Origin: Gammaproteobacteria bacterium
GTDB lineage: Bacteria; Pseudomonadota; Gammaproteobacteria; Eutrophobiales; Eutrophobiaceae
Reading direction: 5' to 3'
NCBI GenBank assembly: GCA_965243205.1
Contig: CBDEUK010000002.1
Location: 512,001-576,000 of the forward strand
DNA length: 64,000 bases
Shown: piece after piece, positions 8,386 to 31,860 of the stretch
How positions within the stretch are numbered: the first letter of the stretch is position 1
Layout of the letters: each line of letters opens with the position of its first letter
The notes under the pieces: model-generated
What the model saw: the letters and a program-made list of their open reading frames with translations, nothing else
Database searches by the model: none
What the model was told of the DNA's origin: nothing
Position numbers and translations under genes: made by a program

Positions 8386-8400
8386 AACCTTTTACTTGTA

Positions 8401-9522: not shown

Positions 9523-9523
9523 G

Positions 9524-14064: not shown

Positions 14065-17000
14065 ATGAGTTTGTTTCATTGCTTAAAAACGATAATTATC
14101 GGTTCGATGGTCGTGGCCATATGTCCTGCGTCTGCGAACCGAGAACTTGCTAATCATCTCCATGATGATTTTCTAGAGCAATCGATTCAATTCAAGCTAA
14201 TGAACCCTCATCGCCGATTTGTTGACCAATCTGCACTATTCAAAATTGATCCTCAGAGGAACTTCCTATTAGCTCAGGTAGACGACCTCGATATTGACTT
14301 TGGAGAGTATGGAGAAGAAGAAGCGTTAGAAGAGTTTGAGGAAGAATACCAAGAAGAAATTGAAGCATTAGAGCAAACTGAACCTGAAATAATAGAACCA
14401 GTAGAAGAAATCGTCGAGCAAGAACCTCTCGTAGGGCCTGAGGAAGTAACTACGTCTACAACAGAAGAAGAGGTGTTTGCAGATGATACAAGTGAAATAA
14501 TCATTGATGATGAACAGGAGACAATTCTAGAAGAGGCACCCACCAATGAAGTTGTCGATGACGGTACTATTTTCATTGACCCTACAGAAGAAACTGCTCC
14601 TATTGAATTTGAAGAAGAACTTGTAGATGAAGCAGATGAGCTTATCGAGGAGATACCTGAAGAAGTTGCGGATGATGAAACTTCCCCTGAGATCCTCGAA
14701 GTCGATGATGTTGAAGTAATTGGTGAACCATTTAAACTCATCACTCCCTTACCGGGCGTCGACTTCGACGAAGACCAAATCTCGACCAATATCCAAACTG
14801 CTACTGGAGAAGACATAAAGAAATCCGGTGCCATCAATGCAACGCAGTTTCTCAATGAACAACTGCAATCGATCACAGTCAGTGATAACTCAGGTAATCC
14901 ATTCCAACAAGACGTTAATTTCCGCGGCTTTTCTGCCTCTCCTCTAATTGCAACACCACAAGGTCTCTCCATCTATATCGATGGAGTTCGAGTTAATGAA
15001 TCCTTTGGCGATGTCGTCAATTGGGATCTAATCCCATTAAATGCCATCGATTCGGTAGCGTTAGTCCCAGGAGCAACACCGCTCTTTGGTCTGAACACCA
15101 TCGCAGGCGCTTTAACCCTGTCGACCAAGACAGGATTTTCTTCACCAGGAGTTGATGCAGCCGCTCGCTACGGAAGTTGGAATCGACGCCAACGTGAACT
15201 CACAATTGGAGGAAATAATGGGTTAGTAGGTGCATTTGTGGCCTACAATCGGGTACAAGAAGATGGCTGGCGTAATAATTCCCCATCAGACGTAGAACAA
15301 ATATTTGGTCGTGCTGATGTTACAACCGACATGCTTAATTTAAGCTTTTCAGGACTAGCTGCTGATAATTCCTTAGTAGGTAATGGTACTGTCCCATTTA
15401 GTGATTTTGAAATCGATCCTGAACAAATTTACACATCACCGGATATAACAAATAACTCAGTCAATCACTTTAATATGACAGCTACTTTGACCCCTAACGA
15501 TAATACTTCTATATCAGCCCTTGCTTACCATCGTGGGGTTAATCAGACTACAATTGGTGGTGATTTCTGGGATGATTTTGAACGAGCGGTCGACGGTCGT
15601 CTGGGCTACTTTTGCGATAGATTTGCTGCTCCTGGTCAACCAGCCAATGGAGCTGGAACAGGTGATCCAGGCGTTCCTGGTTGTTATCCGAATGGTGTTT
15701 TAAATCAAGGCGGGTTAGAACAGGATACCTATGGTGCTTCACTACAACTAAACTGGGTTACCGAGCGTAATCAAGCCGTTTTTGGAGCTACGTTTGATAA
15801 ATACAACGTTGAATTTAGTCAGAGTCAATTATTAGGCTTCATTGAATCGGATCGCAGTGTCGTAGCTGACCCGACGCGCTTAGTAGGAGCAAATCTCATA
15901 GGCGCTCCGTTTTTTGATGACCCTCAAGTTTTTATTAATCTTTGCGTCTTATCCGGACAAACACTTGCAACATGTCAAGAGCTCTCAAGGCAGGATGAGC
16001 TCGGTCGCATCAACTTTGCAGCAGAAAATCCCATTCTACGAAACCGTGTTAAGGGCGTAGGAACCAACGCTGCCTTCTTTTTATACGATGCTTTCAATGT
16101 TACACCTAAGCTCACAACAACTTTGGGACTAAGGTACAACCGCACTCGTGTACAAAACCAGGTGCAGGCGGATGCACCTACTCCCCTTTGGACATTTGAT
16201 CGAGCCACATTCGAAAATACAATATTGCAGTGCCGTCTCGATCCAACCGATCTAGTTAGTCGTTTGCAATGTACTTCAGAGGACATTGTATTTAAGTCTT
16301 GGAACCCAGCCCTCGGTATAACCTATGCCTTAAATGAATCCACAAGTACATTCGCCAACGTTAGTGTAGGAACGCGTACTCCATCTGCTATAGAACTCGC
16401 ATGTGCACGTCCTGCAGATGAAGATATCCAACAAGGGCTTATCGTTGGTTGTACGATTCCGACAAACTTTACGGCTGATCCACCCCTAGAACAAGTTCGA
16501 TCTACTTCTTATGAGATTGGCACACGAATGCAGTTTAATAATGGAATTGATGCCAATCTGGCTTTTTTCCGAACGGACCTTAAAAATGATATCTTATTTT
16601 TATCGCTTGGCCGTGGTAATCGTGGAGTATTTGATAACTTTGGTGAAACTCGTCGCCAAGGTCTAGAATTGGGTCTTTCGGGTGACCATGGCCGTTTTAA
16701 TTGGTTTCTTAACTATACCTATCTCAAAGCAACCTTTGAATCAGAAGCAACCGTAGTTAATTCCTCAAATAGCACCGCGGCCAGAGGATTCAATGCGATA
16801 AACGAATTTACAGTGGACATAGGTGATGAAATTCCTGGCGTTCCTAATCATGCTATTCGAGCCGGGGTTGAATTTGCATTCACACCAAAATTCAGTCTAG
16901 GGCTGAATTTGATCGCACAAAGCGACTCGTTCGCCCGTGGTAACGAGAATAATGAACATCAAGCGGTCGGTAATGATGAATTCAGCAATGGTCAGTCTTC

Positions 17001-17361
17001 ATCAGGACCCTGTGCCCCCAATATTCAATTACCAGGCGGAGCTTGTTTTGAGGGCGGTCGACCGTTCATTGGAAGTGGCAGCATCAAAGCTTTTTGGATT
17101 CTGAATCTTGATGCCACATACCGTCCTACTAAACGACTGACGGTTTCATTAGCAGTTGATAATCTATTTGACAAAAGGTTTGCAACCGCAGGCAATCTGG
17201 GTTTTTCACCCTTTCAATCAGATTCTGTAAACTTCCCTGGTGCAGTGGATGCAGCTGGATTCAACTTCAATTCCTTCAACTGGAAACACGACCTCTTTGT
17301 CGGCCCAGGCGCCCCGAGGGCTGCCTGGTTGAGCTTGCGCTATACCTGGGATGGTTGGTAA
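14065..17361 (+). CDS. TonB-dependent receptor resembling the lanthanide-associated LutH/LanA type, with long acidic N-terminal extension
   Basis: Plug motif NPFQQDVNFRGFSASPLIATPQGLSIYIDGVRVNESFGDVVNWDLIP, ADPPLEQVRS, DNLFDKRF, GAPRAAWLSLRY C-terminal strand. Subfamily call is from recall of motifs. Confidence 0.85.
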   Translation: MSLFHCLKTIIIGSMVVAICPASANRELANHLHDDFLEQSIQFKLMNPHRRFVDQSALFKIDPQRNFLLAQVDDLDIDFGEYGEEEALEEFEEEYQEEIEALEQTEPEIIEPVEEIVEQEPLVGPEEVTTSTTEEEVFADDTSEIIIDDEQETILEEAPTNEVVDDGTIFIDPTEETAPIEFEEELVDEADELIEEIPEEVADDETSPEILEVDDVEVIGEPFKLITPLPGVDFDEDQISTNIQTATGEDIKKSGAINATQFLNEQLQSITVSDNSGNPFQQDVNFRGFSASPLIATPQGLSIYIDGVRVNESFGDVVNWDLIPLNAIDSVALVPGATPLFGLNTIAGALTLSTKTGFSSPGVDAAARYGSWNRRQRELTIGGNNGLVGAFVAYNRVQEDGWRNNSPSDVEQIFGRADVTTDMLNLSFSGLAADNSLVGNGTVPFSDFEIDPEQIYTSPDITNNSVNHFNMTATLTPNDNTSISALAYHRGVNQTTIGGDFWDDFERAVDGRLGYFCDRFAAPGQPANGAGTGDPGVPGCYPNGVLNQGGLEQDTYGASLQLNWVTERNQAVFGATFDKYNVEFSQSQLLGFIESDRSVVADPTRLVGANLIGAPFFDDPQVFINLCVLSGQTLATCQELSRQDELGRINFAAENPILRNRVKGVGTNAAFFLYDAFNVTPKLTTTLGLRYNRTRVQNQVQADAPTPLWTFDRATFENTILQCRLDPTDLVSRLQCTSEDIVFKSWNPALGITYALNESTSTFANVSVGTRTPSAIELACARPADEDIQQGLIVGCTIPTNFTADPPLEQVRSTSYEIGTRMQFNNGIDANLAFFRTDLKNDILFLSLGRGNRGVFDNFGETRRQGLELGLSGDHGRFNWFLNYTYLKATFESEATVVNSSNSTAARGFNAINEFTVDIGDEIPGVPNHAIRAGVEFAFTPKFSLGLNLIAQSDSFARGNENNEHQAVGNDEFSNGQSSSGPCAPNIQLPGGACFEGGRPFIGSGSIKAFWILNLDATYRPTKRLTVSLAVDNLFDKRFATAGNLGFSPFQSDSVNFPGAVDAAGFNFNSFNWKHDLFVGPGAPRAAWLSLRYTWDGW

Positions 17362-17378
17362 AAATATCAAAAAAGAAT

Positions 17379-18454
17379 TAAAAAGAAAGCCCCTTTAGTG
17401 GGGCTTTCTGAATCTTGAATTAGTAACTGTTTGTTACTTTGTAGGTTTTATTAAGGAAAGGCAGAACTTTTTCTTACTAAACCGCTTTAAACCGAGCGGC
17501 TCCAACCCCGATAACCCCAAGTGCTACAGCCAAACCGAGAATTCCCAACCATGGTAAAGGAACCTGTTCAGTATTGCTGCTACATTCTACTGAGACAAAA
17601 CCCGGTAAGAAAATAGAAACCTGAGTTTGTCCCTCCTCGCCAGCTTGATTAAGTTCTAGAGAATTTGGCTGCTCTTCATAACATTCAGCCGTAGTCTTCA
17701 AATGAAAATACATAGAGGTAGGATTAAGTTCACTAACGTTAAGATCCGTTTGAAACCGCACCACATCTGGGTCAAAAGGTGTGGCACCCCCAAGGGTTTT
17801 AGCCGTAGTCCGTGCTACGTTATATAATCTTAAGCCTCCCTCACGTCGCTCCGAGCTCGCGGCTTGCACAGTGTAACCATCGTTTCCAGAACGTAGAATA
17901 TAATTGAATTCAGATTCGTTTACGACCGCACCAGCACCTTCAGGAAGGGTTGGTTCAAGGTCTACTCGCAAAGATAACACCAATGAATTATCCGTAGTAT
18001 CCGTAAAAACACTATCCGTAATAGTACCGACGGTGACTGGTCCAGTCGCTGGATCAGACAATCCAAGTACTTGCGACCGATCTAGGACAAGGTCGCGTAC
18101 TTTTTCTTCAACTAAGGTAAGACGCTCAGGGGCATCGAAAATATCGAGCGTAGTCGTACCCACCACCACATCATCAATGTCAGGTCCGTTACAATCGAGA
18201 TTCGCGTTGGTGATGAACAGTCGATTTATACCGCTGATTGGAACTCCTGGATTACCGCTGGAAATGTTTTCGCAATCCAGGGCATAAAACACATCTGACG
18301 TAAGTTGCGCAACACCATCAACTCGCGTTCCGTCACTGGGAATGTCACAATAACCAGTTGCTAATTTGATATTGTTGTCAGTGCTAGTGCAATCTTTTGC
18401 TTGTACTCCAGATGCTATTAACATGAGCGAAATAATAATGATGCTGTATTTCAA
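17379..18454. repeat. Tandem duplication, copy A (about 1.08 kb, gene plus terminator)
   Basis: Aligns ungapped to 18881-19956 at offset 1502; 17835-18289 is identical. Confidence 0.95.
17384..17409. terminator. Intrinsic terminator between the convergent receptor and copy A
   Basis: AGAAAGCCCC-TTTAGT-GGGGCTTTCT hairpin with an A-run on the left. Confidence 0.8.
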
Positions 18455-18472
18455 ACTTGGTGCTTTATACAC
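17477..18472 (-). CDS. Secreted protein with PEP-CTERM/VPLPA-like C-terminal anchor (copy A)
   Basis: GTG start with AGAGGT RBS, signal peptide ending VQA, six Cys, C-terminal VPLPW + hydrophobic helix + RFK. Confidence 0.85.
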   Translation of the reverse strand: MYKAPSLKYSIIIISLMLIASGVQAKDCTSTDNNIKLATGYCDIPSDGTRVDGVAQLTSDVFYALDCENISSGNPGVPISGINRLFITNANLDCNGPDIDDVVVGTTTLDIFDAPERLTLVEEKVRDLVLDRSQVLGLSDPATGPVTVGTITDSVFTDTTDNSLVLSLRVDLEPTLPEGAGAVVNESEFNYILRSGNDGYTVQAASSERREGGLRLYNVARTTAKTLGGATPFDPDVVRFQTDLNVSELNPTSMYFHLKTTAECYEEQPNSLELNQAGEEGQTQVSIFLPGFVSVECSSNTEQVPLPWLGILGLAVALGVIGVGAARFKAV

Positions 18473-18686
18473 AATTTTATACCTCTTCTGAACGATACTC
18501 TCTTTTTCAATATAGTAAGGAGTCTGAGTAACTCCTACAAATTAGCTTCTAACCTCTCATTCACGTTAGAGATCAGTTACAATAAGAGACTTGAAATTGT
18601 TCTGTCCATAAATCTAATTTGTGTCGTGACGAGTCGCTTATTATTCAATGATTAATTTGTAGAACAAACTAATTAGTTTAATCCCA

Positions 18687-18728
18687 ATTTTATTATTAGT
18701 TATACATAATTTGTTAGGGATATCTTCC
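18687..18728 (-). promoter_or_regulatory. Putative activator-dependent promoter of copy A
   Basis: Sense GGAAGATATCCCTAACAAATTAT then TAAAAT 22 nt after CCTA; same box at 21359-21381. Confidence 0.55.
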
Positions 18729-18885
18729 TGCTTATTTATTATGTAACACAATTTTCATATTTTGAACTGCTCTAGAAAAATTATATTTTTCATCTATATT
18801 ATTGAGATCACAGGGTTACCAAAGGCAAAACCACTTTGCTGAATAGCCAAACCCATTGATAAGGTTATGGATGGGAATAATAAAA

Positions 18886-18911
18886 AGAAAGCCCCAGAAT
18901 TGGGGCTTTCT
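18886..18911 (-). terminator. Intrinsic terminator of copy B
   Basis: AGAAAGCCCCA-GAAT-TGGGGCTTTCT hairpin; U-tract on minus strand. Confidence 0.8.
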
Positions 18912-18978
18912 GGATCTTAAATTAGTAACTGTTTGTTACTTTGTAGGTTTTATTAAGGAAAGGCAGAACTTTTTCTTA

Positions 18979-19956
18979 CTAAACCGCTTTAAACCGAGCG
19001 GCTCCAACCCCGATAACCCCAAGTGCTACAGCCAAACCGAGAATTCCCAACCATGGTAAAGGAACCTGTTCAGTATTGCTGCTACATTCTACTGAGACAA
19101 AACCCGGTAAGAAAATAGAAACCTGGGGTTGCCCCTCCTCGCCAGCTTGATTGATCTCTAGAGCATTCGGCTGCTCTTCATAACATTCAGCCGTAGTCTT
19201 CAAATGAAAATACCTTGAGGTAGGATTAAGTTCACTAACGTTGATATCCGTTTGAAACCGCACCACATCTGGGTCAAAAGGTGTGGCACCCCCAAGGGTT
19301 TTAGCCGTAGTCCGTGCTACGTTATATAATCTATTTCCTCCCTCACGTCGCTCCGAGCTCGCGGCTTGCACAGTGTAACCATCGTTTCCAGAACGTAGAA
19401 TATAATTGAATTCAGATTCGTTTACGACCGCACCAGCACCTTCAGGAAGGGTTGGTTCAAGGTCTACTCGCAAAGATAACACCAATGAATTATCCGTAGT
19501 ATCCGTAAAAACACTATCCGTAATAGTACCGACGGTGACTGGTCCAGTCGCTGGATCAGACAATCCAAGTACTTGCGACCGATCTAGGACAAGGTCGCGT
19601 ACTTTTTCTTCAACTAAGGTAAGACGCTCAGGGGCATCGAAAATATCGAGCGTAGTCGTACCCACCACCACATCATCAATGTCAGGTCCGTTACAATCGA
19701 GATTCGCGTTGGTGATGAACAGTCGATTTATACCGCTGATTGGAACTCCTGGATTACCGCTGGAAATGTTTTCGCAATCCAGGGCATAAAAGGGATCTGA
19801 TGTAATTTGTGCAACACCATCAACTCGCGTTCCGTCACTGGGAATGTCACAATAACCAGTTGCTAATTTGATATTGTTGTCAGTGCTAGTGCAATCTTTT
19901 GCTTGTATTCCAGATGTTATAAGCATGAGCGAAATAATAATGATGCCATGTTTCAT
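18979..19956 (-). CDS. Secreted protein with PEP-CTERM/VPLPA-like anchor (copy B)
   Basis: Paralogue of 17477-18472 with 8 amino-acid changes in the mature region. Confidence 0.88.
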   Translation of the reverse strand: MKHGIIIISLMLITSGIQAKDCTSTDNNIKLATGYCDIPSDGTRVDGVAQITSDPFYALDCENISSGNPGVPISGINRLFITNANLDCNGPDIDDVVVGTTTLDIFDAPERLTLVEEKVRDLVLDRSQVLGLSDPATGPVTVGTITDSVFTDTTDNSLVLSLRVDLEPTLPEGAGAVVNESEFNYILRSGNDGYTVQAASSERREGGNRLYNVARTTAKTLGGATPFDPDVVRFQTDINVSELNPTSRYFHLKTTAECYEEQPNALEINQAGEEGQPQVSIFLPGFVSVECSSNTEQVPLPWLGILGLAVALGVIGVGAARFKAV

Positions 19957-20194
19957 AATTAACTTATTCCTATTCTGTGAGATGCTTTTTTATAAAGTAT
20001 GTAAATTAATTTATTGGCTGAAATTAAATCACAAATGGTTTTTTCAAGTAATCTTCTTGAGTAAGATTTTGAACATAAAGGACTGATTTAATTAGATATT
20101 TAGGATATGTTAACTATTGAAATAGGATTATTTCACTGCTTTATGGAAAACGTTTTAAATTGCATCCTCCTTATTATCTGTGATCTATTAGATC

Positions 20195-20220
20195 AAAAAA
20201 GGGGCCTGAACGGCCCCTTT
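20195..20220 (-). terminator. Intrinsic terminator
   Basis: AAAGGGGCC-TGAAC-GGCCCCTTT with a U6 tract on minus strand. Confidence 0.7.
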
Positions 20221-20341
20221 GAATTAACTTCTATTTAATTTTAGGTATGAGTTTACTAGGTTCCACTTTTTAGAGATAAAGACTAAACAAAAGAGAGGTG
20301 TCTTAGCTATTGATGTACTGTCGCTATGCGACCGTGTGCAT

Positions 20342-20379
20342 AAAAAAACCTCGAATGCACAATGTGCAGTCGAGGTTTT
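20342..20379 (-). terminator. Intrinsic terminator of the VPLPA-CTERM gene
   Basis: AAAACCTCGA-A-TGCAC-AAT-GTGCA-G-TCGAGGTTTT, 20 nt after the stop. Confidence 0.75.
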
Positions 20380-20399
20380 AAAGTAAAAAATTTAAGCAA

Positions 20400-21239
20400 T
20401 TAAGATTTTTTACGAATGCCTACCATTCCAATCAAAGCAGAACCTAATAACCATACTGCAGCTGGCACAGGAACTGGAGCAAAAGATTGTAGGTTATCAC
20501 CAAAAATATAGTTCTGGAATCGATCTTCACTAGGGTCAAATTCAGAGAAGAGCGTCAATGCACCAGTGATTTGGGTATAGTCGGTCGCATCAGTAGCAAC
20601 GAGATGCCATACAGAGTAAGGGTTATCTTCTTCGCCACTCATGTCATTAACGAAAGTCACAAGATTTGAGTCTTTGCTTACTTCGTCGAAAACACGATCG
20701 ATACCACTTTGGGCAAAATATGCTGCTTCTGTTGAAACCGATGAAGCGTATTGTCGTCTGACTTCATTGAATTCACCTTCGTATTCAAATAAGCCTGAAC
20801 CACCTGGGCCATCATCTAATTCCGGGAAGAGCGTAACTCGTGTAGCAAATACTAGAGTGTTATCAGAATTATTACGCCAGACCTGATCTGTAAGAATTCC
20901 AATCTCTTCAAGTTCACCATCTTCAGGAAATGTGATCTCATATTCATTTTCATCGATTATGGTGTAGCCTGCAGGAAGTAGAAATCCATTTGTACTGCGA
21001 GTGAAAAATTCTTCTTCTGGTGCCTCACCGAAGGTACCGAAACCCGGATCCACGGCTGCTGGTGCATCACCGCCTAGGACAAAACCTTGATCAGGTCCTA
21101 GACCGCTACCAATGATCTGGAAATCAGGACCACCAGTACTAAGAAAACTATCACCGTTGTTAAGATTTTGAAACGCCGCATTAGCGCTACTTGATGTAAT
21201 TAATGCTAGAACAGATATAATGAGAGACTTAGAATTCAT
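20400..21239 (-). CDS. Acidic secreted VPLPA-CTERM protein, distant paralogue of copies A/B
   Basis: AGGAGGG RBS, signal peptide ending ANA, C-terminal VPVPAAVWLLGSALIGMVGIRKKS. Confidence 0.9.
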   Translation of the reverse strand: MNSKSLIISVLALITSSSANAAFQNLNNGDSFLSTGGPDFQIIGSGLGPDQGFVLGGDAPAAVDPGFGTFGEAPEEEFFTRSTNGFLLPAGYTIIDENEYEITFPEDGELEEIGILTDQVWRNNSDNTLVFATRVTLFPELDDGPGGSGLFEYEGEFNEVRRQYASSVSTEAAYFAQSGIDRVFDEVSKDSNLVTFVNDMSGEEDNPYSVWHLVATDATDYTQITGALTLFSEFDPSEDRFQNYIFGDNLQSFAPVPVPAAVWLLGSALIGMVGIRKKS

Positions 21240-21339
21240 GTCTCTACCCTCCTAATTTAATTGTGTGAAGACTTGTATCTTGACGAGTCGCTTGTTATAA
21301 AAAATATATTTTTGAACGCCTTACGCCGTCAGAATGTTG

Positions 21340-21381
21340 ACTATATCATTTCATAATTATAATTCGTTAGGGATATCTTCC
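21340..21381 (-). promoter_or_regulatory. Putative activator-dependent promoter of the VPLPA-CTERM gene
   Basis: Sense GGAAGATATCCCTAACGAATTAT then TGa-TATAGT extended -10, 22 nt after CCTA. Confidence 0.6.
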
Positions 21382-21503
21382 CGGTTTTTATTAAATATCC
21401 CCTTTTTATTTAGCAAATTAGAATTTTTTTAACTATTTAATAATATGTTTTTTTAGCCTTTTCTTGTTGTATTCTCGCTTTTTCTTTTCGATCTTAACTG
21501 AGA

Positions 21504-22931
21504 TTAAAGATTGTATTTCTTCATTCGATATCGCAAAGCCATACGTGTTATACCTAATTCTCTTGCGGCCTTTGAGACATTACCATTAGTTTTTTCTAAA
21601 GCTTGTTTAATCATATTTAATTCAGCTTCGCTTAGTGTTAAATCATCTTTGGTTTCTTCCATAACAACTGCTTGTTTAGGTTTATTCACTAAAGCTAATT
21701 GTTCAGAAGTAATTTCTTCACCACCACTTAATAGTACTGCACGTTCAATCAAATGCTTCATTTCTCGAATGTTACCTGGCCACTCATAATTTAAAATCGA
21801 GTCTTTTGCATCATCATTAAACTCTGGTGTTTCTAAAGCATAACGTTTAGCAGTTTGAGCAGCGAAATGATTGGCTAATATCATCGCATCATTACCGCGT
21901 TCTCGTAATGGTGGTAAGGTAATACTTAAAACATTCAATCGATAAAATAAATCTGAACGAAATTCACCACTCTCCGATAACGATTCAATATCTCGATTGG
22001 TTGCAGCGACAAACCAAGCTTGTACTGGAATTTCCTGTGTTGAACCTACTTTACGCATACTACGGCGTTCTAATACTGCTAATAATTTACCTTGTAGGTC
22101 CAAAGGCAATTCACCAATCTCATCGATGAATAACACGCCATCTTCAGCTGCTTCTATTAAACCCGTTCTAGCTACATGTGCATTGGTAAACGCACCTTTT
22201 TCATGGCCAAATAATTCCGCTTCAATCAAATCTTTTGGTAATGAGGCACAGTCCATATGTACAAATGGTTTTTGCATTCTTGCACTTTTAGAATGTAGAA
22301 CACGTGCTAACACATCTTTACCTGTACCTGTTTCTCCTAGTATTAATACTGTAGGAGGAACAGCATCAGCATTCATTGTAAGCTGGGCAATACGTTCAAC
22401 TTGTTTTTTAACATCTTTAATCGCTTTACAGTTACCAAGAAAATCAATCGTATTTGCTGAATGTTCAACAGCATGTTGTTCGCGCTTACTTGAGTAAGTT
22501 AATTTTTGTTCTGTCTCCTGTCGTCTCATAACTTTCTCGACATTCAACATAAGCTCATCAAGATCGACTGGTTTCTTAAGATAATCAGAAGCTCCTAATT
22601 TCATTGCTTGTACTGCGTCTTCAATTTCACCATAAGCAGACATTACAATCACAGCAGCATTAGAATCGTATTTATTTCTAACATCGGTTAAAAAATCCAG
22701 GCCTGAGCCATCAGGTAATCTCATATCAAGTAAAATTAAATCTGGAGAAAACGCTTTGAATTTTTCATGAGCTGTTTCTATATCGCCTGCAATTTCGCTA
22801 TTAAATCCAGAGCGTGTTATACGTTTATTAACTGCTTTTGCTAAAATGGTTTCATCTTCAACGATTAATACTTTATGTTCTATGACTGGTATTTCAGTTG
22901 CAGGCACATAGTTATCAAAAAAGTCTGTCAT
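21504..22931 (-). CDS. Sigma54-dependent response regulator (NtrC/AtoC family; REC-AAA+-Fis HTH)
   Basis: LLDMRLPDGSG, GETGTGK, ELFGHEKGAFTNA, FRSDLFYRLNV, WPGNIRE, NVSKAARELGITR. Confidence 0.93.
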   Translation of the reverse strand: MTDFFDNYVPATEIPVIEHKVLIVEDETILAKAVNKRITRSGFNSEIAGDIETAHEKFKAFSPDLILLDMRLPDGSGLDFLTDVRNKYDSNAAVIVMSAYGEIEDAVQAMKLGASDYLKKPVDLDELMLNVEKVMRRQETEQKLTYSSKREQHAVEHSANTIDFLGNCKAIKDVKKQVERIAQLTMNADAVPPTVLILGETGTGKDVLARVLHSKSARMQKPFVHMDCASLPKDLIEAELFGHEKGAFTNAHVARTGLIEAAEDGVLFIDEIGELPLDLQGKLLAVLERRSMRKVGSTQEIPVQAWFVAATNRDIESLSESGEFRSDLFYRLNVLSITLPPLRERGNDAMILANHFAAQTAKRYALETPEFNDDAKDSILNYEWPGNIREMKHLIERAVLLSGGEEITSEQLALVNKPKQAVVMEETKDDLTLSEAELNMIKQALEKTNGNVSKAARELGITRMALRYRMKKYNL

Positions 22932-22945
22932 AATTATTGATCTAA

Positions 22946-24403
22946 TTAATTGGTTGTATTTGGAATGGTAATCGTTATATCAGTACCGATACCTTCATTG
23001 ATTTCAAAATTCAAATCCCAACCATGGGTTTGACAAATTTTAAAAGCAATCGGAATACCTAAGCCAGTACCAAAACGTTTCGTCGTAGGGCCTGGCTCTA
23101 AATTTCTTGGTTCAGGTTTAAATGGTAAACCTCCACCTTCATCTATGATGGATAAGATAAGATTTTGTTCTCGTTGTATGAAACCGATTTTTAACCTGGC
23201 ATTTTTAGGTGATGCATCAACGGCATTAGCAAGTAAACCATACAATGCTTGCTCCATTAAATCTGGGTCAACAAGTACTGTAGTTGAGTCATCCCAATCC
23301 AGTTGTTCAAGTTCGATTTGTTTTTCTTCTAATTTTGTTTTTAATACCGCTAGAGTTGAGTTTAATAAGTCGCTGACTTTATGTTGTCGCTTATTTGGTT
23401 TTAAAGGATGTAAATACGATACTAAGGAATTAACCCACCGCCCTAACCTATCTATTGTTTCAATTATCGCTTCACTACTTTCTTTTAATTCTTCTTTATC
23501 ATCAGCATCATCTAACACTTGTGCAGTTGCTCTAATCGCAGCCAAAGGATTTCGAATATTATGTGCGACAACTGGCACTAGTGCGCCTAGAGCCGCTTGT
23601 TTTTCACTTTGAACTAAAGCATCACGACTGGTTTCAAGATCGCTTGCCATTTGATTAATCGTTGCCGCTAATTCAGAAACTTCTTCAACGCCTTTTTCAG
23701 GAATGGAATGAGATAAATCACCAGCTTTGATTTTATGGGCACCATCCATAATATTGGTCATGGGTTTCATAAAACCACGTTTTAAAAAGTTTCGTGCAAA
23801 GACAACTAAAATTAAAGCAATGATTAATGGGATTGGAATGATTAACGGTGCATAAGTCGACCAGCGTTTGAGTGTATTATCTAAAACATCATGCTGTTGA
23901 TCTAATAATTTACGAAATTCTAAATATCGGTTTTCAAATTTATCGACCATGCTTTCAGCAAATCGCGGATCGAGAATTTTCATCCGAACCCGTAAATCTG
24001 AAATATACGGGTCGGTAAAGATTTTATTCATATCTTTTTGAATTTCACGATAGGACTCTTGCAAATCTTGAATCGCTTCATTTTCCTCACGAGAATCAGC
24101 AGTATTTCTTAGATTATTAAATTGCTTATCGATAAGACGTGAATATTCTGCATATACATCAAGTGACTTAGAGTCCTCTAAAACTCTGACTCGAATCGCA
24201 GCCTGGATTTGTCGAAACAAAGAACTTCGCACCTGCTCAGTCACAGATTTCAACTCATTAATACGTACCGATTCAGCCGAATTTTTTTGCCAGAAATAGG
24301 CAGACATACCACCAATGATCCCTGTTACAGCGACTAACAATAAGAACGCAATCTCATGGATTAAAAGTAGATTGCTCAGTGATTTAGGTCGTTTAGCAAG
24401 CAT
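22946..24403 (-). CDS. Membrane sensor histidine kinase (periplasmic sensor, HAMP, HisKA, HATPase)
   Basis: Two TM helices, HAMP, VAHNIRNPL H-box, NAVDA, DEGGG, GTGLG. Confidence 0.9.
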   Translation of the reverse strand: MLAKRPKSLSNLLLIHEIAFLLLVAVTGIIGGMSAYFWQKNSAESVRINELKSVTEQVRSSLFRQIQAAIRVRVLEDSKSLDVYAEYSRLIDKQFNNLRNTADSREENEAIQDLQESYREIQKDMNKIFTDPYISDLRVRMKILDPRFAESMVDKFENRYLEFRKLLDQQHDVLDNTLKRWSTYAPLIIPIPLIIALILVVFARNFLKRGFMKPMTNIMDGAHKIKAGDLSHSIPEKGVEEVSELAATINQMASDLETSRDALVQSEKQAALGALVPVVAHNIRNPLAAIRATAQVLDDADDKEELKESSEAIIETIDRLGRWVNSLVSYLHPLKPNKRQHKVSDLLNSTLAVLKTKLEEKQIELEQLDWDDSTTVLVDPDLMEQALYGLLANAVDASPKNARLKIGFIQREQNLILSIIDEGGGLPFKPEPRNLEPGPTTKRFGTGLGIPIAFKICQTHGWDLNFEINEGIGTDITITIPNTTN

Positions 24404-24430
24404 TATTCAGCCAGTATACTCTATTAGATA

Positions 24431-24469
24431 TGGTTCATATAGACCAATTTCATGGTTATTCATAACCAT
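24431..24469. promoter_or_regulatory. Tandem palindromic upstream activator sites (TGGT-N8-ACCA x2)
   Basis: TGGTTCATATAGACCA (24431-46) and ATGGTTAT-TC-ATAACCAT (24452-69), centres 22 bp apart. Confidence 0.65.
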
Positions 24470-24588
24470 TTATCTTCAATGAAACACTGTAAAACATTGA
24501 ATTATGAATAGTTATTATTTAAATAAAAACAACGTAAGCAACTGTTTTTAAAATACTTTTATGTAAAATATTTTTGTTGTCTATATCA

Positions 24589-24605
24589 CTGGCATACAAA
24601 CTGCT
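24589..24605 (+). promoter_or_regulatory. Sigma54 (-24/-12) promoter of pqqA
   Basis: CTGGCATACAAACTGCT = GG-N10-GC, about 80 bp upstream of pqqA. Confidence 0.75.
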
Positions 24606-24687
24606 GATGTAGGTATGTACTGTCATTAAGTACATCTGGGAAACCAGATTGAACCTTATCTTTTAACATTAACGAGGAGAACTCATC

Positions 24688-24762
24688 ATGAAATGGGAAA
24701 CACCTGCTTACAGTGATATCCGTTTTGGTTTTGAAGTTACCATGTACATCAACAACAAATAA
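24688..24762 (+). CDS. pqqA: PQQ precursor peptide PqqA (missed by ORF track)
   Basis: MKWETPAYSDIRFGFEVTMYINNK, with the E-x-x-x-Y core and a GAGGAG RBS. Confidence 0.97.
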   Translation: MKWETPAYSDIRFGFEVTMYINNK

Positions 24763-24790
24763 TTGTTGAGGTAGCTTACAGCTAAAACAC

Positions 24791-24813
24791 GGGGCTGTAA
24801 CAGCCCCTTTTTT
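24791..24813 (+). terminator. Intrinsic terminator of pqqA
   Basis: GGGGCTGT-A-ACAGCCCC followed by a T6 tract. Confidence 0.85.
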
Positions 24814-24981
24814 GTCGAAGTTCTTTTCAAACGCTTAATTCATCAGACACAAACAAATCCTCCTCATATAGGAGCCATTGAAACATATTCAATGGCTCCT
24901 TTTTATTTCATAACATTTATCGAAACTCGGGAATTATTCCTTTGTGCAAACATTCATTATTCATTTAGTCTTAAAATAAAA

Positions 24982-25713
24982 ATGAATATATTCATGAAAC
25001 TATCTGCATTTAAATTTTTATTACCGATTACACCTTTATTCCTTATTCAGGCTTGCTCTGAACAACCTTCGAATCTATTTTTTCCTTCAGAAAAAGGCAT
25101 TACTTGGACTTATAATGTTGAACAACTAACGATGACCGAACCTGTTTTTTATCGAATGATGTTTACTAATCTTGGTAAAAAAAAGATTGACGATCAATCT
25201 TTCTATATACGTAAGTTACATAATAATAGTTTTCAATATTTTAATGATGACGACTCCGGTTTCTATGAATTAATAAAAAACCAAGAAACTAAAACAGAAC
25301 ATAAAAAGTATCTATTTAAATATCCATTAAAAATGACCACAACATGGAAAGCTGAAGGCGATCCTTTTTTAATGCGTCGCTCAATAGATGAAATTAATGC
25401 ACAACAAAACTCTATGCCGGGTTTAAGTCAGGATTCACCTTTAAAGATGGAATACAAGATCGCTAGTATGAGTGATTCTGTAAAAGTACCTGCGGGAAAA
25501 TTCAAAGGCTGTATGAAAGTCGTTGGTAAAGGAAACTGTTCTTTCTCCAGTACTGGCAGCTTTGCTCGTAAAATGATTGTTGAAGTCATTAATAACGAAT
25601 GGTATTGCCCTGAAGTTGGATTAGTAAAAATTGATCGTAGGGAATCCAGTGAGCGTGTCTCATTGAAACCTGTTCACTATGTTATCGAACTAGAAAAAAT
25701 ATCTCACCAATAA
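24982..25713 (+). CDS. Hypothetical beta-rich lipoprotein
   Basis: Lipobox IQAC; FFP..G.TWTY, VKVPAGKF..C, WYCPEVGLVK. Start shortened relative to the ORF track. Confidence 0.7.
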   Translation: MNIFMKLSAFKFLLPITPLFLIQACSEQPSNLFFPSEKGITWTYNVEQLTMTEPVFYRMMFTNLGKKKIDDQSFYIRKLHNNSFQYFNDDDSGFYELIKNQETKTEHKKYLFKYPLKMTTTWKAEGDPFLMRRSIDEINAQQNSMPGLSQDSPLKMEYKIASMSDSVKVPAGKFKGCMKVVGKGNCSFSSTGSFARKMIVEVINNEWYCPEVGLVKIDRRESSERVSLKPVHYVIELEKISHQ

Positions 25714-25738
25714 AAAACCCCGACCGAAGTCGGGGTTT
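25712..25738. terminator. Terminator between the lipoprotein gene and xoxF
   Basis: AAACCCCGAC-CGAA-GTCGGGGTTT hairpin; longer U-tract on minus strand. Confidence 0.85.
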
Positions 25739-25779
25739 CTAGTCTTATAGGAACATAACTGCTCCTTAAACTAAGTTGC

Positions 25780-27765
25780 TTATGGCAATGAGAAAACCAT
25801 TAACACACCAGCATTACGTGATGAGTTCAATAGTTTACGATAACCACCAACCGCACCTAGAGCCGCTTCACCTGGAGCAGCTGCTAAGCCTGGGATAGCA
25901 ACAACAGCACCAGCCCAACCGCCGATACCTGAAAGGATACCTACGTATTGTTTGCCTTTGTGTGCCCATGTATGGAAGTTACCGATAATGCCTGATGGAG
26001 TTTTGAATTTCCAAAGAAGCTTACCAGATTTCGCATCAACCGCTTTAGCATACGAATCAAGTGTTCCATAGAACACAACATCGCCCGCTGTGGTTAATAT
26101 GCCAGACCATACAGACCATTGTTCGGTAATATTCCAAACAATTTTACCTTTGTCCGCATCCCAAGCAATGAAGTTACCCATATTATCCTTTTCAGGGTTA
26201 TTGTTAGGGCAATCTGGGCATACAGCACCAGCAGGATACATGGTTAAGTTAGCATTAACGTAAGCTTGACCAGATACATAACGGTTACCACCAGCCGCAT
26301 AAGATACAGGCTCATAGGTCATACAAACGTGGTTTGTAGGAACATAGAAAAGACCTGTACGTGGGCTATAAGCCGCAGGTTGTTGGTCTTTGGTACCTAG
26401 AGCAGCAGGACATACGTCTTTAGATACAACATCTTCACCATTATGATGCGGGCTGTATTGATTAAGAACCTGAGGATAACCAGTCTTCATATCAACATGA
26501 GTAGCCCAGTTAACCGCAGGGTCAAATTTCTCAGCAACCAAGAGTTCGCCGGTAATACGATCCATGGTGTATGCAAAACCATTACGGTCAAAGTGAACTA
26601 ATGCTTTACGCATTTTGCCTTTGACTTTCATGTCAACCAAGATCATTTCGTTAACACCGTCATAATCCCACTCATCATGTGGAGTCATTTGGTAAGCCCA
26701 ACGAGCAACACCTGTGTCGATGTCACGAGCGAACATGGTCATAGACCATTTGTTGTCACCTGGACGAACCGTTGGGTTCCAAGTAGATGGGTTACCTGAA
26801 CCGTAATAGACTAAGTTTTCATCAAAGTCAGCAGGCCACCAGCCCCATACAGAACCACCACCAGTTTTCCACTGAGGTCCGCGTGTTTTACACTCACGTG
26901 CCTGAAGATTGAAATTACGTAGTTCCTTGTCACCAGTCCAATCATTTTCAGCACACCAAGTTTTCAGTGAAGAATCTTTACCAACTTTTCTACCCATAGA
27001 GGTGGTATTTTCGTCGAAAAGAATATCTTCATCAGGACCCATTGAGAATGCGCGCCATGCTAAAGAACCATCTTTCGCATTGTAAGCTGCTAACCAGCAA
27101 CGAACACCAAACTCAGCACCAGAACAACCAGTCATAATTTTATCTTTGATTGGGTGTGGAGCATTGGTGTTGGTCATACCACTTGCAGGACCAACGCCTC
27201 GGCCCTCTTTAGGATTTGGACCAGTAGTAATTTCGTGACCGTTAAATACATCCCAAACCACTTCACCTGTTTTAGCATTCAAAGCAACTAATTTGGTGTC
27301 GTTTTGTTGTAAGTAGATTTGACCATATGAATAACCTAAACCACGGTTAACAATGTCGCAGCACATAACTGGTACAGTTTCTTCTTCGTTTTGTTGTGGC
27401 TCGAAAGACCAAACGATTTCGAAAGTGTCTAAGTTAATCGCGAAAACATCATTCGGGAATGATGAATGGATGTATAAGGTGTCATGAGGTAAACCAGTAG
27501 CACTGGTAGGTAATACCAATGGACCACCTTCGTGACCTTGTAGACGACCTGTTGAGAATGTCCAAGCTGCAACTATTTTATTGACGTTTTCTGTGTTGAT
27601 TTGTTTCAGCTTCGAATATCGCCAATTATTATAGTCACCACCAGGGAATGCCCAGTAGTTCGGATTGTCATTCAACGCACGAACTTCGTCGTTTGCTGAT
27701 GCTGACATAGGAACGGCTAAAGCGATAGAAGCCACTAAAGCCGACTTAAGTGTAAATTTATTCAT
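25780..27765 (-). CDS. xoxF: Lanthanide-dependent PQQ methanol dehydrogenase XoxF
   Basis: Signal peptide, vicinal CC ([10 protein letters not shown]), [15 protein letters not shown] with the extra lanthanide-binding Asp (MxaF has Ala there), [12 protein letters not shown]. Confidence 0.92.
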
Positions 27766-28158: not shown

Positions 28159-28701
28159 TTAAAATTTATTCGGTAACATTCTACTAAGAACGTTTTCATG
28201 TCGACTTATCAAAAAAGCAAAAGCACCACATAGATGGATAACGATCAAAGTTAGTAAGAAAATTGATGAAATCTCATGGATCGCAGTAAAAAAATCATTC
28301 CATTCTTTACTCGGTTCAAAAATACGTGGCAAATCAATTATGCCCCAAAAACTGGTTTTATATTTCGTAAAGCTAGAAGAAATAAAACCGGTTAATGGCT
28401 GTAGAATCATAAATAAGTAAAGTGAATGATGAGTTGCTGTAGCCAATTTCCTTTGCCATGAAGACAATGACCTAGGTAATGCGGGTCGTCTGTCAATTAC
28501 GGCCCATATTATGCGTATAAACAGTAACAAAAAAACCGTCATACCAATATTTTTATGCAGTCTAAAGAAATAACTTCGCTCATCCGAACCTTTGGGTAAA
28601 TCTTCCATGTACCACCCAAGGCAGAACAAAACGAGGATTAAAATGGCCATTAACCAATGCAGTGACATAGCCAATTTTGAGTATTTTTGTACTTCAGACA
28701 T
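28159..28701 (-). CDS. Cytochrome b561 (YceJ/CybB-like)
   Basis: LHWLMA, LHKNIG, THHSLY, IHE/IHL histidines on four TM helices. Confidence 0.88.
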   Translation of the reverse strand: MSEVQKYSKLAMSLHWLMAILILVLFCLGWYMEDLPKGSDERSYFFRLHKNIGMTVFLLLFIRIIWAVIDRRPALPRSLSSWQRKLATATHHSLYLFMILQPLTGFISSSFTKYKTSFWGIIDLPRIFEPSKEWNDFFTAIHEISSIFLLTLIVIHLCGAFAFLISRHENVLSRMLPNKF

Positions 28702-29387: not shown

Positions 29388-29903
29388 ATGTCATCAAAAC
29401 ATCATTTTTTATATATCTTTATAGGTATATTTCTACTAGCTCTTTATTTATATAATAAAGCAAAACTTGATGCTGCCAACAATGAAGGTTCAACTAAACA
29501 AGAATCGTTATATTCAGTAAGCTCAAATAAATCTTTTACCGATGCTGCAGAAGATGCCGCCTTTGCAATATCAGAACGTAATTTTCGAATCACGAACACC
29601 CTAAGGATAGGTAACGCAATTCGCGAGCGAGGCACAGAAAACTATTTAGATTATGACGTAATATTATTTTGTAATATTCAATACGCTGAACTTATGATTG
29701 ATGCAGATCCATATTACGTAAATTATTGCCCTGGACAAATAACCATCAGCGAAGTGTCTGAAAATCAGGTTATAATATCTGCCCCTTTGGTACCACTGCA
29801 TGGTTCCAATAATGAATTAAATGAATTAGTACAAGAAATAAATCGCCTAGTAGTTGAAAGCGTAGACTTTGCAGCTGAAACTTGGCAACAAGAATCAGAA
29901 TAA
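29388..29903 (+). CDS. DUF302-like membrane-anchored protein
   Basis: N-terminal TM; ILFCN...YCP pattern. Confidence 0.65.
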   Translation: MSSKHHFLYIFIGIFLLALYLYNKAKLDAANNEGSTKQESLYSVSSNKSFTDAAEDAAFAISERNFRITNTLRIGNAIRERGTENYLDYDVILFCNIQYAELMIDADPYYVNYCPGQITISEVSENQVIISAPLVPLHGSNNELNELVQEINRLVVESVDFAAETWQQESE

Positions 29904-29920
29904 TTCTTGAGGAGAAGGTT

Positions 29921-30661
29921 TTGAATAAAATTGAACATCATTTATTACTCAGTTGGTTAATATTAATTGGTTTAATTACATTCGGCTTATACTTAGCTTG
30001 GGATCAAGGAATTCTTAATTTATTGTATGGCAGTGATAAAAGTAAAATATCGTATTTAATTAGTTTTATTTATCTTTTAATTATTGGTCATGGAGCAATT
30101 CGTGTTTGGTATGTATCAAAACAATTAAACTACTCAAGCCAAATTGTGAATGATATTAAACACCATTCTTCTGAAAAAATATTTGTTCATGACGAACAAG
30201 TAAAATTTTCAAACAATCAATTCTTACCTAACTCAATCACTACTGAATTTATTCATGATTTAGTAACTCGTAATAATAATCAGATCAATAAAACAAATTC
30301 TGAGAATGCAAGCGAAACAGACTTAATTGATGTCTATGAATCAAGATTGAAGAGCCCAGACGAAATTGGTTGGTTTGCGTCGGACGCGATGATTAAACTT
30401 GGTTTATTAGGCACAATAATTGGTTTTATTTTAATGTTAAGTTCAGTCGTAAATGTTACTGAGTTTGATGTTACAACCATGCAAAAGATTCTAGCCAACA
30501 TGAGTTCAGGTATGGGTACAGCTTTATATACAACAATGGCAGGACTTATTTGCAGTTTATTAGCAACTGCTCAGTATCATATGATTGAACGCCATATAGA
30601 TGAATTAATGAATTCAATCAAACATATATCACAAGTTCATATCTTACCTAAACTCAGCTAA
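29921..30661 (+). CDS. MotA/TolQ/ExbB proton channel family protein
   Basis: LGLLGTIIGF and GMGTALYTTMAG; TTG start with GAGGAG RBS. Confidence 0.85.
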   Translation: MNKIEHHLLLSWLILIGLITFGLYLAWDQGILNLLYGSDKSKISYLISFIYLLIIGHGAIRVWYVSKQLNYSSQIVNDIKHHSSEKIFVHDEQVKFSNNQFLPNSITTEFIHDLVTRNNNQINKTNSENASETDLIDVYESRLKSPDEIGWFASDAMIKLGLLGTIIGFILMLSSVVNVTEFDVTTMQKILANMSSGMGTALYTTMAGLICSLLATAQYHMIERHIDELMNSIKHISQVHILPKLS

Positions 30662-30669
30662 TCATAATC

Positions 30670-31266
30670 ATGGGTATACGTAAACGTTTAAAATCTGATC
30701 CCTTTACAGATCTTTTATTTAATGCACTATTAGGTTTTACTTTTTTATTTCTGGTCGCCATTATGTTTATGAATCCAGAAGCAAAAACAGGCATTATTGA
30801 TCCTAAAGCTGAATATATTATTACTGTTACCTGGGAAGACTTTAGTCCTGAAGATATCGATGTTTGGGTTGAAGATCCTGATGGAAACTTAATCTATTTC
30901 CAAAATCGTGAAGCAGGATTAATACATTTAGATAGAGATGATCGTGGTATGTTGAACGATATTATTATGGTTGGAGGCAAAGAAGTTGAAAACCCTTTAA
31001 ACCAAGAAATCGTAACCATTCGAGGTGTTGTTAAAGGTGAGTACGTAGTAAACCTACATTACTATCAATCTGAAAGCGGCAAACCCGTTAACGCAAATAT
31101 ACGTTTAGCCAAAGTAAACCCTAAACTTGAAGTGATTTATTATGGGCAAGTATCCTTAGCTGAACATGAAGAAAAAACTGCTTTCAGATTTAAAATAACC
31201 AATAACGGTAAAATATCTGGAATTAATTTTATACCTAAGACTTTAGTTACCCTAGGAAAATCCTAA
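30670..31266 (+). CDS. ExbD/MotB-like single-pass partner with a beta-sandwich (DUF2135/YfaP-like) periplasmic domain
   Basis: DPFTDLLF at the start of the TM; DIDVWVEDPDG, LDRDDRG, GEYVVNLHYY. Confidence 0.6.
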   Translation: MGIRKRLKSDPFTDLLFNALLGFTFLFLVAIMFMNPEAKTGIIDPKAEYIITVTWEDFSPEDIDVWVEDPDGNLIYFQNREAGLIHLDRDDRGMLNDIIMVGGKEVENPLNQEIVTIRGVVKGEYVVNLHYYQSESGKPVNANIRLAKVNPKLEVIYYGQVSLAEHEEKTAFRFKITNNGKISGINFIPKTLVTLGKS

Positions 31267-31335
31267 TTGGAAAATCTTTTAGACAAAGTCTTAGTGAACA
31301 AATCATAACGACAATAAATTAGAGGAGTTAGTATT

Positions 31336-31860
31336 GTGTTTACATTAGGTATTACTGGCATCATAACCGCTTATGTCATACTTGGACTATTATTATTAAG
31401 CTTGAATCTTTATTCCAAATGGCCTTGGTACGTTAAGTTCAGCGCAATCGCTATTACTTCTTTATTTTATATAGTGACTTATATCTCAATGCCTCCACTG
31501 TTAGGTTGGCCAACTGACCAAACACCGCCAGAACGTTTCCGATTAATATCAACCTATGTTGAACAACCTAATAAATTAACAGGTGATGAAGGCGGCATTT
31601 ATTTATGGCTATCCGAAATAGATGATTTATCAGAAACACCTGAACCGCGTGCGTATAAATTTCCTTATAGCGATCCTTTTCATGAAGATATATTAAAGGC
31701 TCAATCCAAACTTAATAAAAGCATTTTGCAACTTGGAGAATTCAAAGACGAAGAAGAAGCTGGCTCGCTAGAAAATCTTGAACTCAAAAATAGAACTACA
31801 AATATTAGCGCAAAGATTTCATTCTATGATTTGCCTGATCCGCTATTCCCAGAAAAATAA
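31336..31860 (+). CDS. Hypothetical membrane protein (2 TM plus soluble domain)
   Basis: GAGGAG RBS, two hydrophobic helices, LLGWP, IYLWL, PRAY, acidic tail DLPDPLFPEK. Confidence 0.7.
   Translation: MFTLGITGIITAYVILGLLLLSLNLYSKWPWYVKFSAIAITSLFYIVTYISMPPLLGWPTDQTPPERFRLISTYVEQPNKLTGDEGGIYLWLSEIDDLSETPEPRAYKFPYSDPFHEDILKAQSKLNKSILQLGEFKDEEEAGSLENLELKNRTTNISAKISFYDLPDPLFPEK

Follow-up and report, generated by a model that had tools for sequence, protein, structure and literature searches.

A TonB-dependent receptor clade paired with putatively exosortase-sorted β-sandwich proteins in methylotrophs, a candidate lanthanide acquisition module

We analysed a 64,000-nt stretch of a gammaproteobacterial genome of the family Eutrophobiaceae (assembly GCA_965243205.1, contig CBDEUK010000002.1, positions 512,001 to 576,000 of the forward strand; hereafter the window), in which a gene for a TonB-dependent receptor (TBDR) adjoins genes for three secreted proteins, A1, A2 and A3, with exosortase-type tails. 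Our most solid finding is that one clade of such receptors is paired with putatively exosortase-sorted β-sandwich proteins, and that this pairing, which we call the cassette, is conserved and restricted to methylotrophs. Considering the genomic context together with one indirect published phenotype, we hold the proposal that the cassette is a lanthanide acquisition module to be evenly balanced.

Extracellular lanthanides are found at picomolar to nanomolar concentrations and are poorly soluble. To our knowledge, the known means of collecting lanthanides comprise one small-molecule chelator, for which many methylotrophs have no genes, and a few receptors. The cassette, being limited to methylotrophs, is a concrete candidate for protein-based extracellular lanthanide capture.

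The receptor and its anchored partners

The TBDR of the window (14065..17361, + strand) has 1098 aa with Plug and barrel domains (PF07715, 55.5 bits; PF00593, 149 bits, E 5.1e-43), and it reaches the cut-off of no NCBIfam receptor family, its best partial matches being siderophore, haem and PqqU models. A hairpin terminator (17384..17409) separates it from the convergent A1 gene (17477..18472, − strand, 331 aa), which is followed on the map by A2 (18979..19956, − strand, 325 aa) and A3 (20400..21239, − strand, 279 aa). A sequence-only reading of this DNA had listed these four genes together with a sigma54 two-component pair, pqqA and xoxF, and each of them is present where it had been placed.

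A word-seeded search of 5.8 billion proteins returned 15 anchored-domain proteins, and an HMMER profile search of 1.84 billion representatives returned 62 at E ≤ 1e-30, rising to 109 at E ≤ 1e-10; 3828 weaker profile matches mostly covered the tail only. Scanning at one genome per species gave 34 anchored-domain loci. In 31 of these the receptor, 37–47% identical to the window TBDR over about 900 aa, directly adjoins the anchored gene or genes, and in the remaining three a contig end interrupts. When open reading frames (ORFs) were clustered across the loci, only the receptor and the anchored proteins were common across lineages. The pair was also present in 16 of 25 loci on metagenome contigs, the other nine contigs being at most 6.1 kb long. 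Three of these nine (L099, L102 and L103) have 0.8–2.4 kb of upstream sequence without a receptor, thus exceptions to the pairing may exist. Among 151 sampled Methylomonadaceae genomes there were 18 anchored-domain matches, 4 of them strong and 14 weaker and tail-less, and a receptor of the same superfamily lay within 2.5 kb in all nine loci that were fetched. No description of a dedicated pairing between a PEP-CTERM protein family and one receptor clade was found in the literature searched.

The genomes that carry the cassette are those of methylotrophs: 24 of the 34 are titled Methylophilus, Methylobacillus, Methylotenera, Methylophilaceae, Methyloversatilis or Methylomonas. The other ten are metagenome-assembled genomes (MAGs), nine of which encode a XoxF-like dehydrogenase at E ≤ 1e-80, while the tenth, without such a match, comes from a contig at about 1x coverage; XoxF-like proteins occur in 2 of 16 genomes of the same class outside the family of the window. 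Gene-neighbourhood and phylogenetic profiling, which the sequence-only reading had proposed as a check, lent real support to a unit of receptor and anchored proteins connected with lanthanide-dependent methylotrophy, the anchored domain occurring mostly in methylotroph or XoxF genomes and lying beside one receptor clade. We attach no statistic to this lineage pattern, because related genomes are not independent.

A2 is a recent tandem copy of A1, with 13 differences in 325 aligned residues (96% identical). The duplicated stretch that contains them measures 1075 nt, aligns without gaps and is 96.7% identical between its two copies (17379-18453 and 18881-19955). It spans the terminator and the coding sequence and leaves out the upstream region, hence A2 has a different upstream sequence from A1. 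A3 is a distant paralogue (27–28% identity with A1/A2 over 182 aa, E about 1e-7), which matches the anchored-family profile at E 3.3e-57 and lacks the Cys-rich N-terminal part of A1/A2. Each anchored gene has its own terminator behind it. The tail of A3 passes the VPLPA-CTERM model TIGR03370 (27.3 bits, cut-off 25.35) and scores 17.2 bits against PF07589 (cut-off 20.7), a model that betaproteobacterial relatives do reach. The A1/A2 tail reaches no curated model; by eye it consists of VPLP, a hydrophobic helix and RFK. The genome contains three matches to exosortase PF09721 above the cut-off and encodes about 35 proteins with PEP-CTERM or VPLPA-type tails.

All three proteins are acidic (D+E 15–19%, isoelectric point about 4.1). 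No EF-hand or PepSY domain was detected in A1–A3, for which Pfam finds no family in A1/A2 and a sub-threshold PEP-CTERM match in A3. The AlphaFold2 model of A1 (pLDDT 88, pTM 0.82) places a β-sandwich at residues 98–295, whose weak fold matches are adhesin and pilin sandwiches; an ESM Atlas search gave a best score of 0.77 and nothing that provided a lead. The polar residues that never vary within this family (D153, D158, E188, N190, D243, E248, N250 and E279) lie at strand ends and in loops of this model, where they could form a cation site.

Receptor relatives and published lanthanum responses

A tree of 53 receptors (IQ-TREE quick search, LG+G4), sampled by similarity to the window receptor and without LanA and LutH, consists of two main clades. 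All 30 partner-linked receptors fall in one of them (SH-aLRT 98), which is the cassette clade, clade II, and includes the window TBDR. The sister group of this partner-linked clade includes a Methyloversatilis receptor (L066), after which come an anchored-domain relative and the orthologues of the window regulator (53%) and kinase (35%), the two members of the sigma54 pair. The other main clade comprises receptors of ~800 aa, including those of Methylobacillus flagellatus (L059) and of a Methylophilus (L061), to which the window TBDR is about 30–32% identical over about 900 aa.

This second clade is the one with a published tie to lanthanum. In M. flagellatus, the receptor Mfla_1253 and the sigma54 regulator Mfla_1254 that follows it are both induced by La3+, and deletion of Mfla_1253 abolished the effect of La on growth (PMC9988556). 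The same order of genes is seen in L059 and L061, where a regulator lies directly after the ~800-aa receptor with the same orientation and has 56% identity to the window regulator over 456 aa (L059) or 53% over its full length (L061). Of the five genomes searched with the window regulator at E ≤ 1e-90, four, all from methylotrophs, have a single match each, and all four orthologues adjoin a receptor of the same superfamily as the window TBDR. In a gammaproteobacterial MAG (L067:5642-10424), a kinase with a MoxY-N domain and a LuxR-type regulator stand directly before the ~800-aa receptor, and the locus also has cytochrome b561, PyrRedox and orthologues of the window kinase and regulator.

Other links to the lanthanide-related gene set lie outside the window. 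The sequence-only reading had seen no PepSY protein in the window, which holds for the ORFs that were scanned; elsewhere in the genome (G000:C2:837637-838185) a lanpepsy-like protein of 182 aa is encoded, which has 25% D+E and a pair of PepSY domains. Relatives of this protein adjoin the ~800-aa receptor in three related genomes (L053, L055 and L056) and the second xoxF of genome G015 (L071). Moreover, lanpepsy-like genes with two PepSY domains lie within 3 kb of the cassette in two of nine Methylomonadaceae loci (L088 and L090), and a gene for a pyrroloquinoline quinone (PQQ) dehydrogenase lies 2 kb beyond the receptor in L092. A suppressor of a xoxF mutant of Methylomonas LW13, in which the lanthanide switch was broken, was mutated in four genes, two of them for exosortases, and the authors leave the link between exosortase and switch unexplained (Zheng et al. 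2018, PMC5874918).

The receptor of the window has one further peculiarity. Its N-terminal extension ahead of the plug (14065..14739, + strand) starts with a signal peptide and continues as a very acidic low-complexity stretch, so that residues 1–225 hold 71 D/E vs 8 K/R, with long EE and DD runs. A comparable extension was found only in the Methylomonas receptor of L020 (19% D/E) and in none of the 51 other receptors compared. The segment ahead of the plug in TonB-dependent receptors faces the periplasm, and we speculate that the extension acts there as a cation acceptor.

The locus of the window, its insertions and its regulatory sites

The cassette of the window lies beside a sigma54-dependent response regulator (21504..22931, − strand) of the NtrC type, with receiver, Sigma54_activat and HTH_8 domains (PF00072; PF00158, E 2.2e-60; PF02954), and its partner sensor histidine kinase (22946..24403, − strand; HAMP, HisKA and HATPase_c domains). 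Beyond these are pqqA (24688..24762, + strand; TIGR02107, 47.3 bits vs a cut-off of 20; terminator at 24791-24807), a DUF3108-like gene (24892..25713, + strand; start probably at 24982, with a lipoprotein-like signal), and a second copy of an XoxF5-type lanthanide methanol dehydrogenase (25780..27765, − strand, 661 aa). This XoxF scores 632.9 bits with TIGR03075 (cut-off 480), and the closest solved chain is the XoxF 6dam (E 1.3e-228). The WDYDG motif reported for it by the sequence-only reading is indeed present in the translation; DYDG instead of DYAG we take to mark the extra Asp of XoxF that coordinates the lanthanide.

Comparison with relatives shows that this arrangement was assembled by two additions. 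In G001 (same genus), G019 and G007 the ancestral order is PyrRedox, regulator, kinase, pqqA, (cytochrome b561), YkuD, DUF302 and ExbB, and the regulator and kinase of G001 are 77–80% identical to those of the window (80% for the kinase). The first addition, TBDR-A1-A2-A3, lies between PyrRedox and the regulator. The second, the DUF3108-like gene with xoxF, lies between pqqA and cytochrome b561 (28159..28701, − strand), which is an ancestral neighbour of pqqA in this bacterial family. The inserted xoxF is 87% identical to the copy in the core locus (SoxYZ, xoxF, xoxJ and formate dehydrogenase), and the same pairing of a DUF3108-like gene with a second xoxF occurs in G015, of another genus (L071:9047-9712, 34% identity). 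In the 40 relatives searched the anchored domain was not found, tail matches being the only ones. The sequence-only reading, which had taken the receptor and anchored proteins for a lanthanide-methylotrophy unit linked to xoxF and pqqA, stands in part: the conserved pairing, the methylotroph genomes, the XoxF-like proteins in the MAGs, the place beside an orthologue of the lanthanum-responsive regulator and a sister receptor missing here speak for the unit, whereas only in this genome does it adjoin xoxF and pqqA.

The absence of that sister receptor is visible in synteny. Both XoxF and the ~800-aa receptor of the other clade occur in 22 of 24 family members, and in G001 the latter sits between two genes whose orthologues adjoin here, 217 bp apart; hence the ~800-aa receptor is missing here at its syntenic site. 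As a result, the lanthanum-linked receptor superfamily is represented in this genome by the cassette receptor alone. XoxF depends on a lanthanide. DYDG is present in each of the three PQQ dehydrogenases that the genome encodes, and no copy resembling MxaF was detected, therefore the organism should need lanthanides to oxidise methanol. The third of these dehydrogenases (L002:9708-15769; G000:C2:101708-107769) clusters with a fusion of MoxJ-like and ankyrin repeats, a binding protein of a PQQ-system ABC transporter and a β-propeller protein.

Regulatory sites were compared along the locus. An upstream block of about 150 nt with 77% identity is common to A1 (18619..18736, − strand) and A3 (21273..21389, − strand) and holds two exact boxes found nowhere else in the 2.79-Mb genome. 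The boxes are absent upstream of A2 and xoxF, and the promoter elements that, on the sequence-only reading, the anchored genes would share with xoxF are not confirmed. In the intergenic region between kinase and pqqA there are two tandem TGGT-N8-ACCA palindromes (24431..24468, + strand), candidate binding sites of an activator, and the single good sigma54-type site of the region, TGGCAT-N5-CTGCT (24590..24605, + strand), ~85 nt 5′ of pqqA. The CTGGCA..CTGC of this site is conserved in three of four related genomes, and the palindromes are partly conserved in G001 and G019. With the sigma54-type site and the tandem palindromes 5′ of pqqA, the sigma54 pair probably drives pqqA; no sequence element was seen that ties the pair to expression of the cassette or of xoxF.

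Outside this genome, a sigma54-type site (e.g. TGGCTCAACTTTTGCT or TGGTTTGATTTTTGCA) lies just 5′ of the receptor ORF in all 17 Methylophilaceae cassettes (L008-L037), and the L066 receptor has one as well; such a site precedes the receptor in none of the five gammaproteobacterial cassettes, the window included. Several other candidates were rejected. With one mismatch allowed, the canonical sigma54 promoter TGGCAC-N5-TTGC has no site in the region. A Methylophaga paper describes cyclic di-GMP riboswitches 5′ of pqqA, of a TBDR and of PEP-CTERM genes; Rfam gave none in the window at its gathering scores, and relaxing the limit to E ≤ 5 brought up nothing relevant. The Fur box had no match within three mismatches. 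Third-position GC content was not decisive as a sign of foreign origin: the cassette (0.28–0.37) exceeds the regulator genes (0.21–0.27), but values as high are seen in PyrRedox, TraB and the core xoxF.

These data bear on the possibility that the cassette lies close to xoxF, pqqA and the sigma54 pair by accident, at an insertion-prone site and without a functional or regulatory link. The locus received two separate insertions and could thus be a hot spot, neither xoxF nor the sigma54 pair has a regulatory motif in common with the cassette, and the terminator behind every anchored gene fits as well. However, the insertion junctions showed no tRNA, integrase or transposase, the regulator orthologues adjoin receptors of the same superfamily in all four other genomes that have one, and the cassette receptor is the sole member of its superfamily here, its sister being missing. 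We therefore regard a mere accident of position as improbable.

Alternatively, the cassette could be a receptor-plus-partner unit for the uptake of another scarce nutrient of methylotrophs, such as Ca2+, copper, an iron chelate, cobalamin or PQQ. The absence of a curated family for the TBDR, with its partial matches to siderophore, haem and PqqU models, would agree with this, as would the fact that most cassette loci have no neighbour related to lanthanides, and pqqA adjoins the cassette region in the window. However, the adjacency to pqqA is ancestral to the locus and not to the cassette, and pqqC is present in the genome, which thus very likely makes its own PQQ; iron regulation finds no Fur-box-like site within the three mismatches allowed; and without MxaF there is no Ca-dependent methanol dehydrogenase that would need supply. 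Moreover, among the receptors sampled, the closest clade is that which published work connects with lanthanum. Another nutrient is accordingly an unlikely substrate in our judgement.

Two further gene sets of the window belong to these subjects at some distance. An ExbB/MotA-family gene and two small proteins without a family match lie at 29882-31860, 1 kb from cytochrome b561, in an order that is kept in relatives, and may constitute an energising system for receptors. A tripartite efflux system of the resistance-nodulation-division (RND) type, with an AcrB-family pump, a fusion protein and an outer-membrane factor, lies at 5302-10981, and a DUF455 protein at 32605-33435. In the M. flagellatus proteome, Mfla_1632 is up and Mfla_0898 down with lanthanum (PMC9988556); they belong to the RND efflux and DUF455 families, as do the window proteins.

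Lanthanide acquisition and comparison with known systems

If the cassette is a lanthanide acquisition module, the acidic β-sandwich proteins would catch the substrate outside the cell and hand it to the receptor for TonB-energised import; in the case of this one receptor, the polyacidic stretch at its N-terminus may then take up the cation in the periplasm. As substrate a lanthanide is most likely, either as the ion or in a complex, with which the XoxF enzymes would be supplied. The substrate, its capture at the surface, any binding of the partners to the receptor and any regulatory role of the sigma54 pair are inferences.

Several observations weigh against lanthanide acquisition. The other 34 cassette loci have no XoxF, no orthologue of the window regulator and no lanpepsy-like gene within 10 kb. 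Upstream of TBDR, A1, A3 and xoxF no sigma54-type GG-N10-GC site of any quality was found, nor, in the window, any activator-type palindrome upstream of TBDR, A1–A3 or xoxF. With 10 Plug-domain receptors in the genome, other import routes exist. In the accessible part of the M. flagellatus report, Mfla_1253 is the sole receptor said to respond to La, and PEP-CTERM proteins go unmentioned (PMC9988556), and the four mutations of the LW13 suppressor occurred together, none being singly tested in the text available (PMC5874918). As for the anchored proteins, their acidity is suggestive of cation binding and not specific to it, since many secreted proteins are acidic; the A1 model found no match in the PDB at E ≤ 1e-3 with Foldseek and only generic β-sandwiches with VIA-align (best Z 6.7). 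Finally, in six Methylobacillus loci the cassette lies just 5′ of genes for a CAAX protease, a β-barrel porin, a sugar transferase and a peptidyl-prolyl isomerase, which are typical of exosortase loci for exopolysaccharide.

A different role can be proposed for the anchored proteins, as adhesins or structural proteins in an exopolysaccharide or biofilm matrix of the PEP-CTERM/exosortase system, with the receptor co-inherited for an unrelated reason. Their PEP-CTERM or VPLPA tails would suit such proteins, as would the position directly before the gene set of the exopolysaccharide/exosortase type in 6 of the 34 loci, the weak adhesin and pilin matches of A1, and the presence of about 35 proteins with such tails in the genome. 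However, exosortase systems are far commoner than the anchored domain, which was found only in methylotroph lineages, and almost without exception the domain is bound to one receptor clade, in tail-less relatives as well, which a structural role alone leaves unexplained. A purely structural function is thus quite unlikely in our view.

Returning to lanthanide acquisition, we tentatively put forward a more specific form of it, which is a possibility on the doubtful side: the exosortase-sorted β-sandwich proteins would be protein ‘lanthanophores’ held in the surface polysaccharide layer, stripping Ln3+ from minerals or colloids for a dedicated receptor clade. In this organism the module would have replaced the ~800-aa receptor, and the polyglutamate tail of its receptor would serve as a periplasmic sink for the cation. 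The PEP-CTERM/exosortase system would then be part of the lanthanide uptake machinery, and the breakage of the LW13 lanthanide switch by exosortase mutations would be accounted for. Even as a lanthanide acquisition module in general, the cassette would give a function to a PEP-CTERM protein family, in a class for which few functions are known, and would offer an explanation for the LW13 suppressor mutant; selective rare-earth binding by its proteins, if real, would also make them attractive for the recovery of these metals.

Among known systems, the closest are the receptors of the Mfla_1253 type, which like the cassette TBDR are TonB-dependent receptors of methylotrophs beside an orthologous sigma54 regulator. 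The cassette TBDR differs from them in forming a separate, well-supported clade and in being paired with anchored β-sandwich proteins, which are absent from the ~800-aa clade. Unlike the LutH, LanA and Mfla_1253 systems, the TBDR of the window has a polyacidic N-terminal extension and no adjacent genes for an ABC transporter, lanmodulin or a chelator. In secondary papers, LanA is less than 20% identical to LutH and common in gammaproteobacterial methanotrophs.

The anchored proteins can be compared with two groups. Like lanpepsy (LanP) and lanmodulin they are small, acidic, secreted proteins of methylotrophs, and lanpepsy-like genes lie near two related cassettes; unlike these, they have no PepSY or EF-hand domain and are predicted to be extracellular and anchored, whereas lanpepsy and lanmodulin are periplasmic. 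Their tails resemble those of PEP-CTERM/exosortase substrates in having a Pro-rich motif, a hydrophobic helix and basic residues, with exosortases encoded in the genome (Haft et al. 2006, as cited), and they are set apart from other PEP-CTERM systems by the dedicated tie of a protein family to one receptor clade.

Receptors that work with a surface partner in uptake are represented by SusC/SusD, TbpA/TbpB and HasR/HasA. The cassette shares with these pairs the gene for a TonB-dependent barrel beside that for a predicted extracellular binding protein. Its partner, unlike SusD, TbpB or HasA, is a predicted exosortase substrate rather than a lipoprotein or a free hemophore, and its fold matches that of no solved partner.

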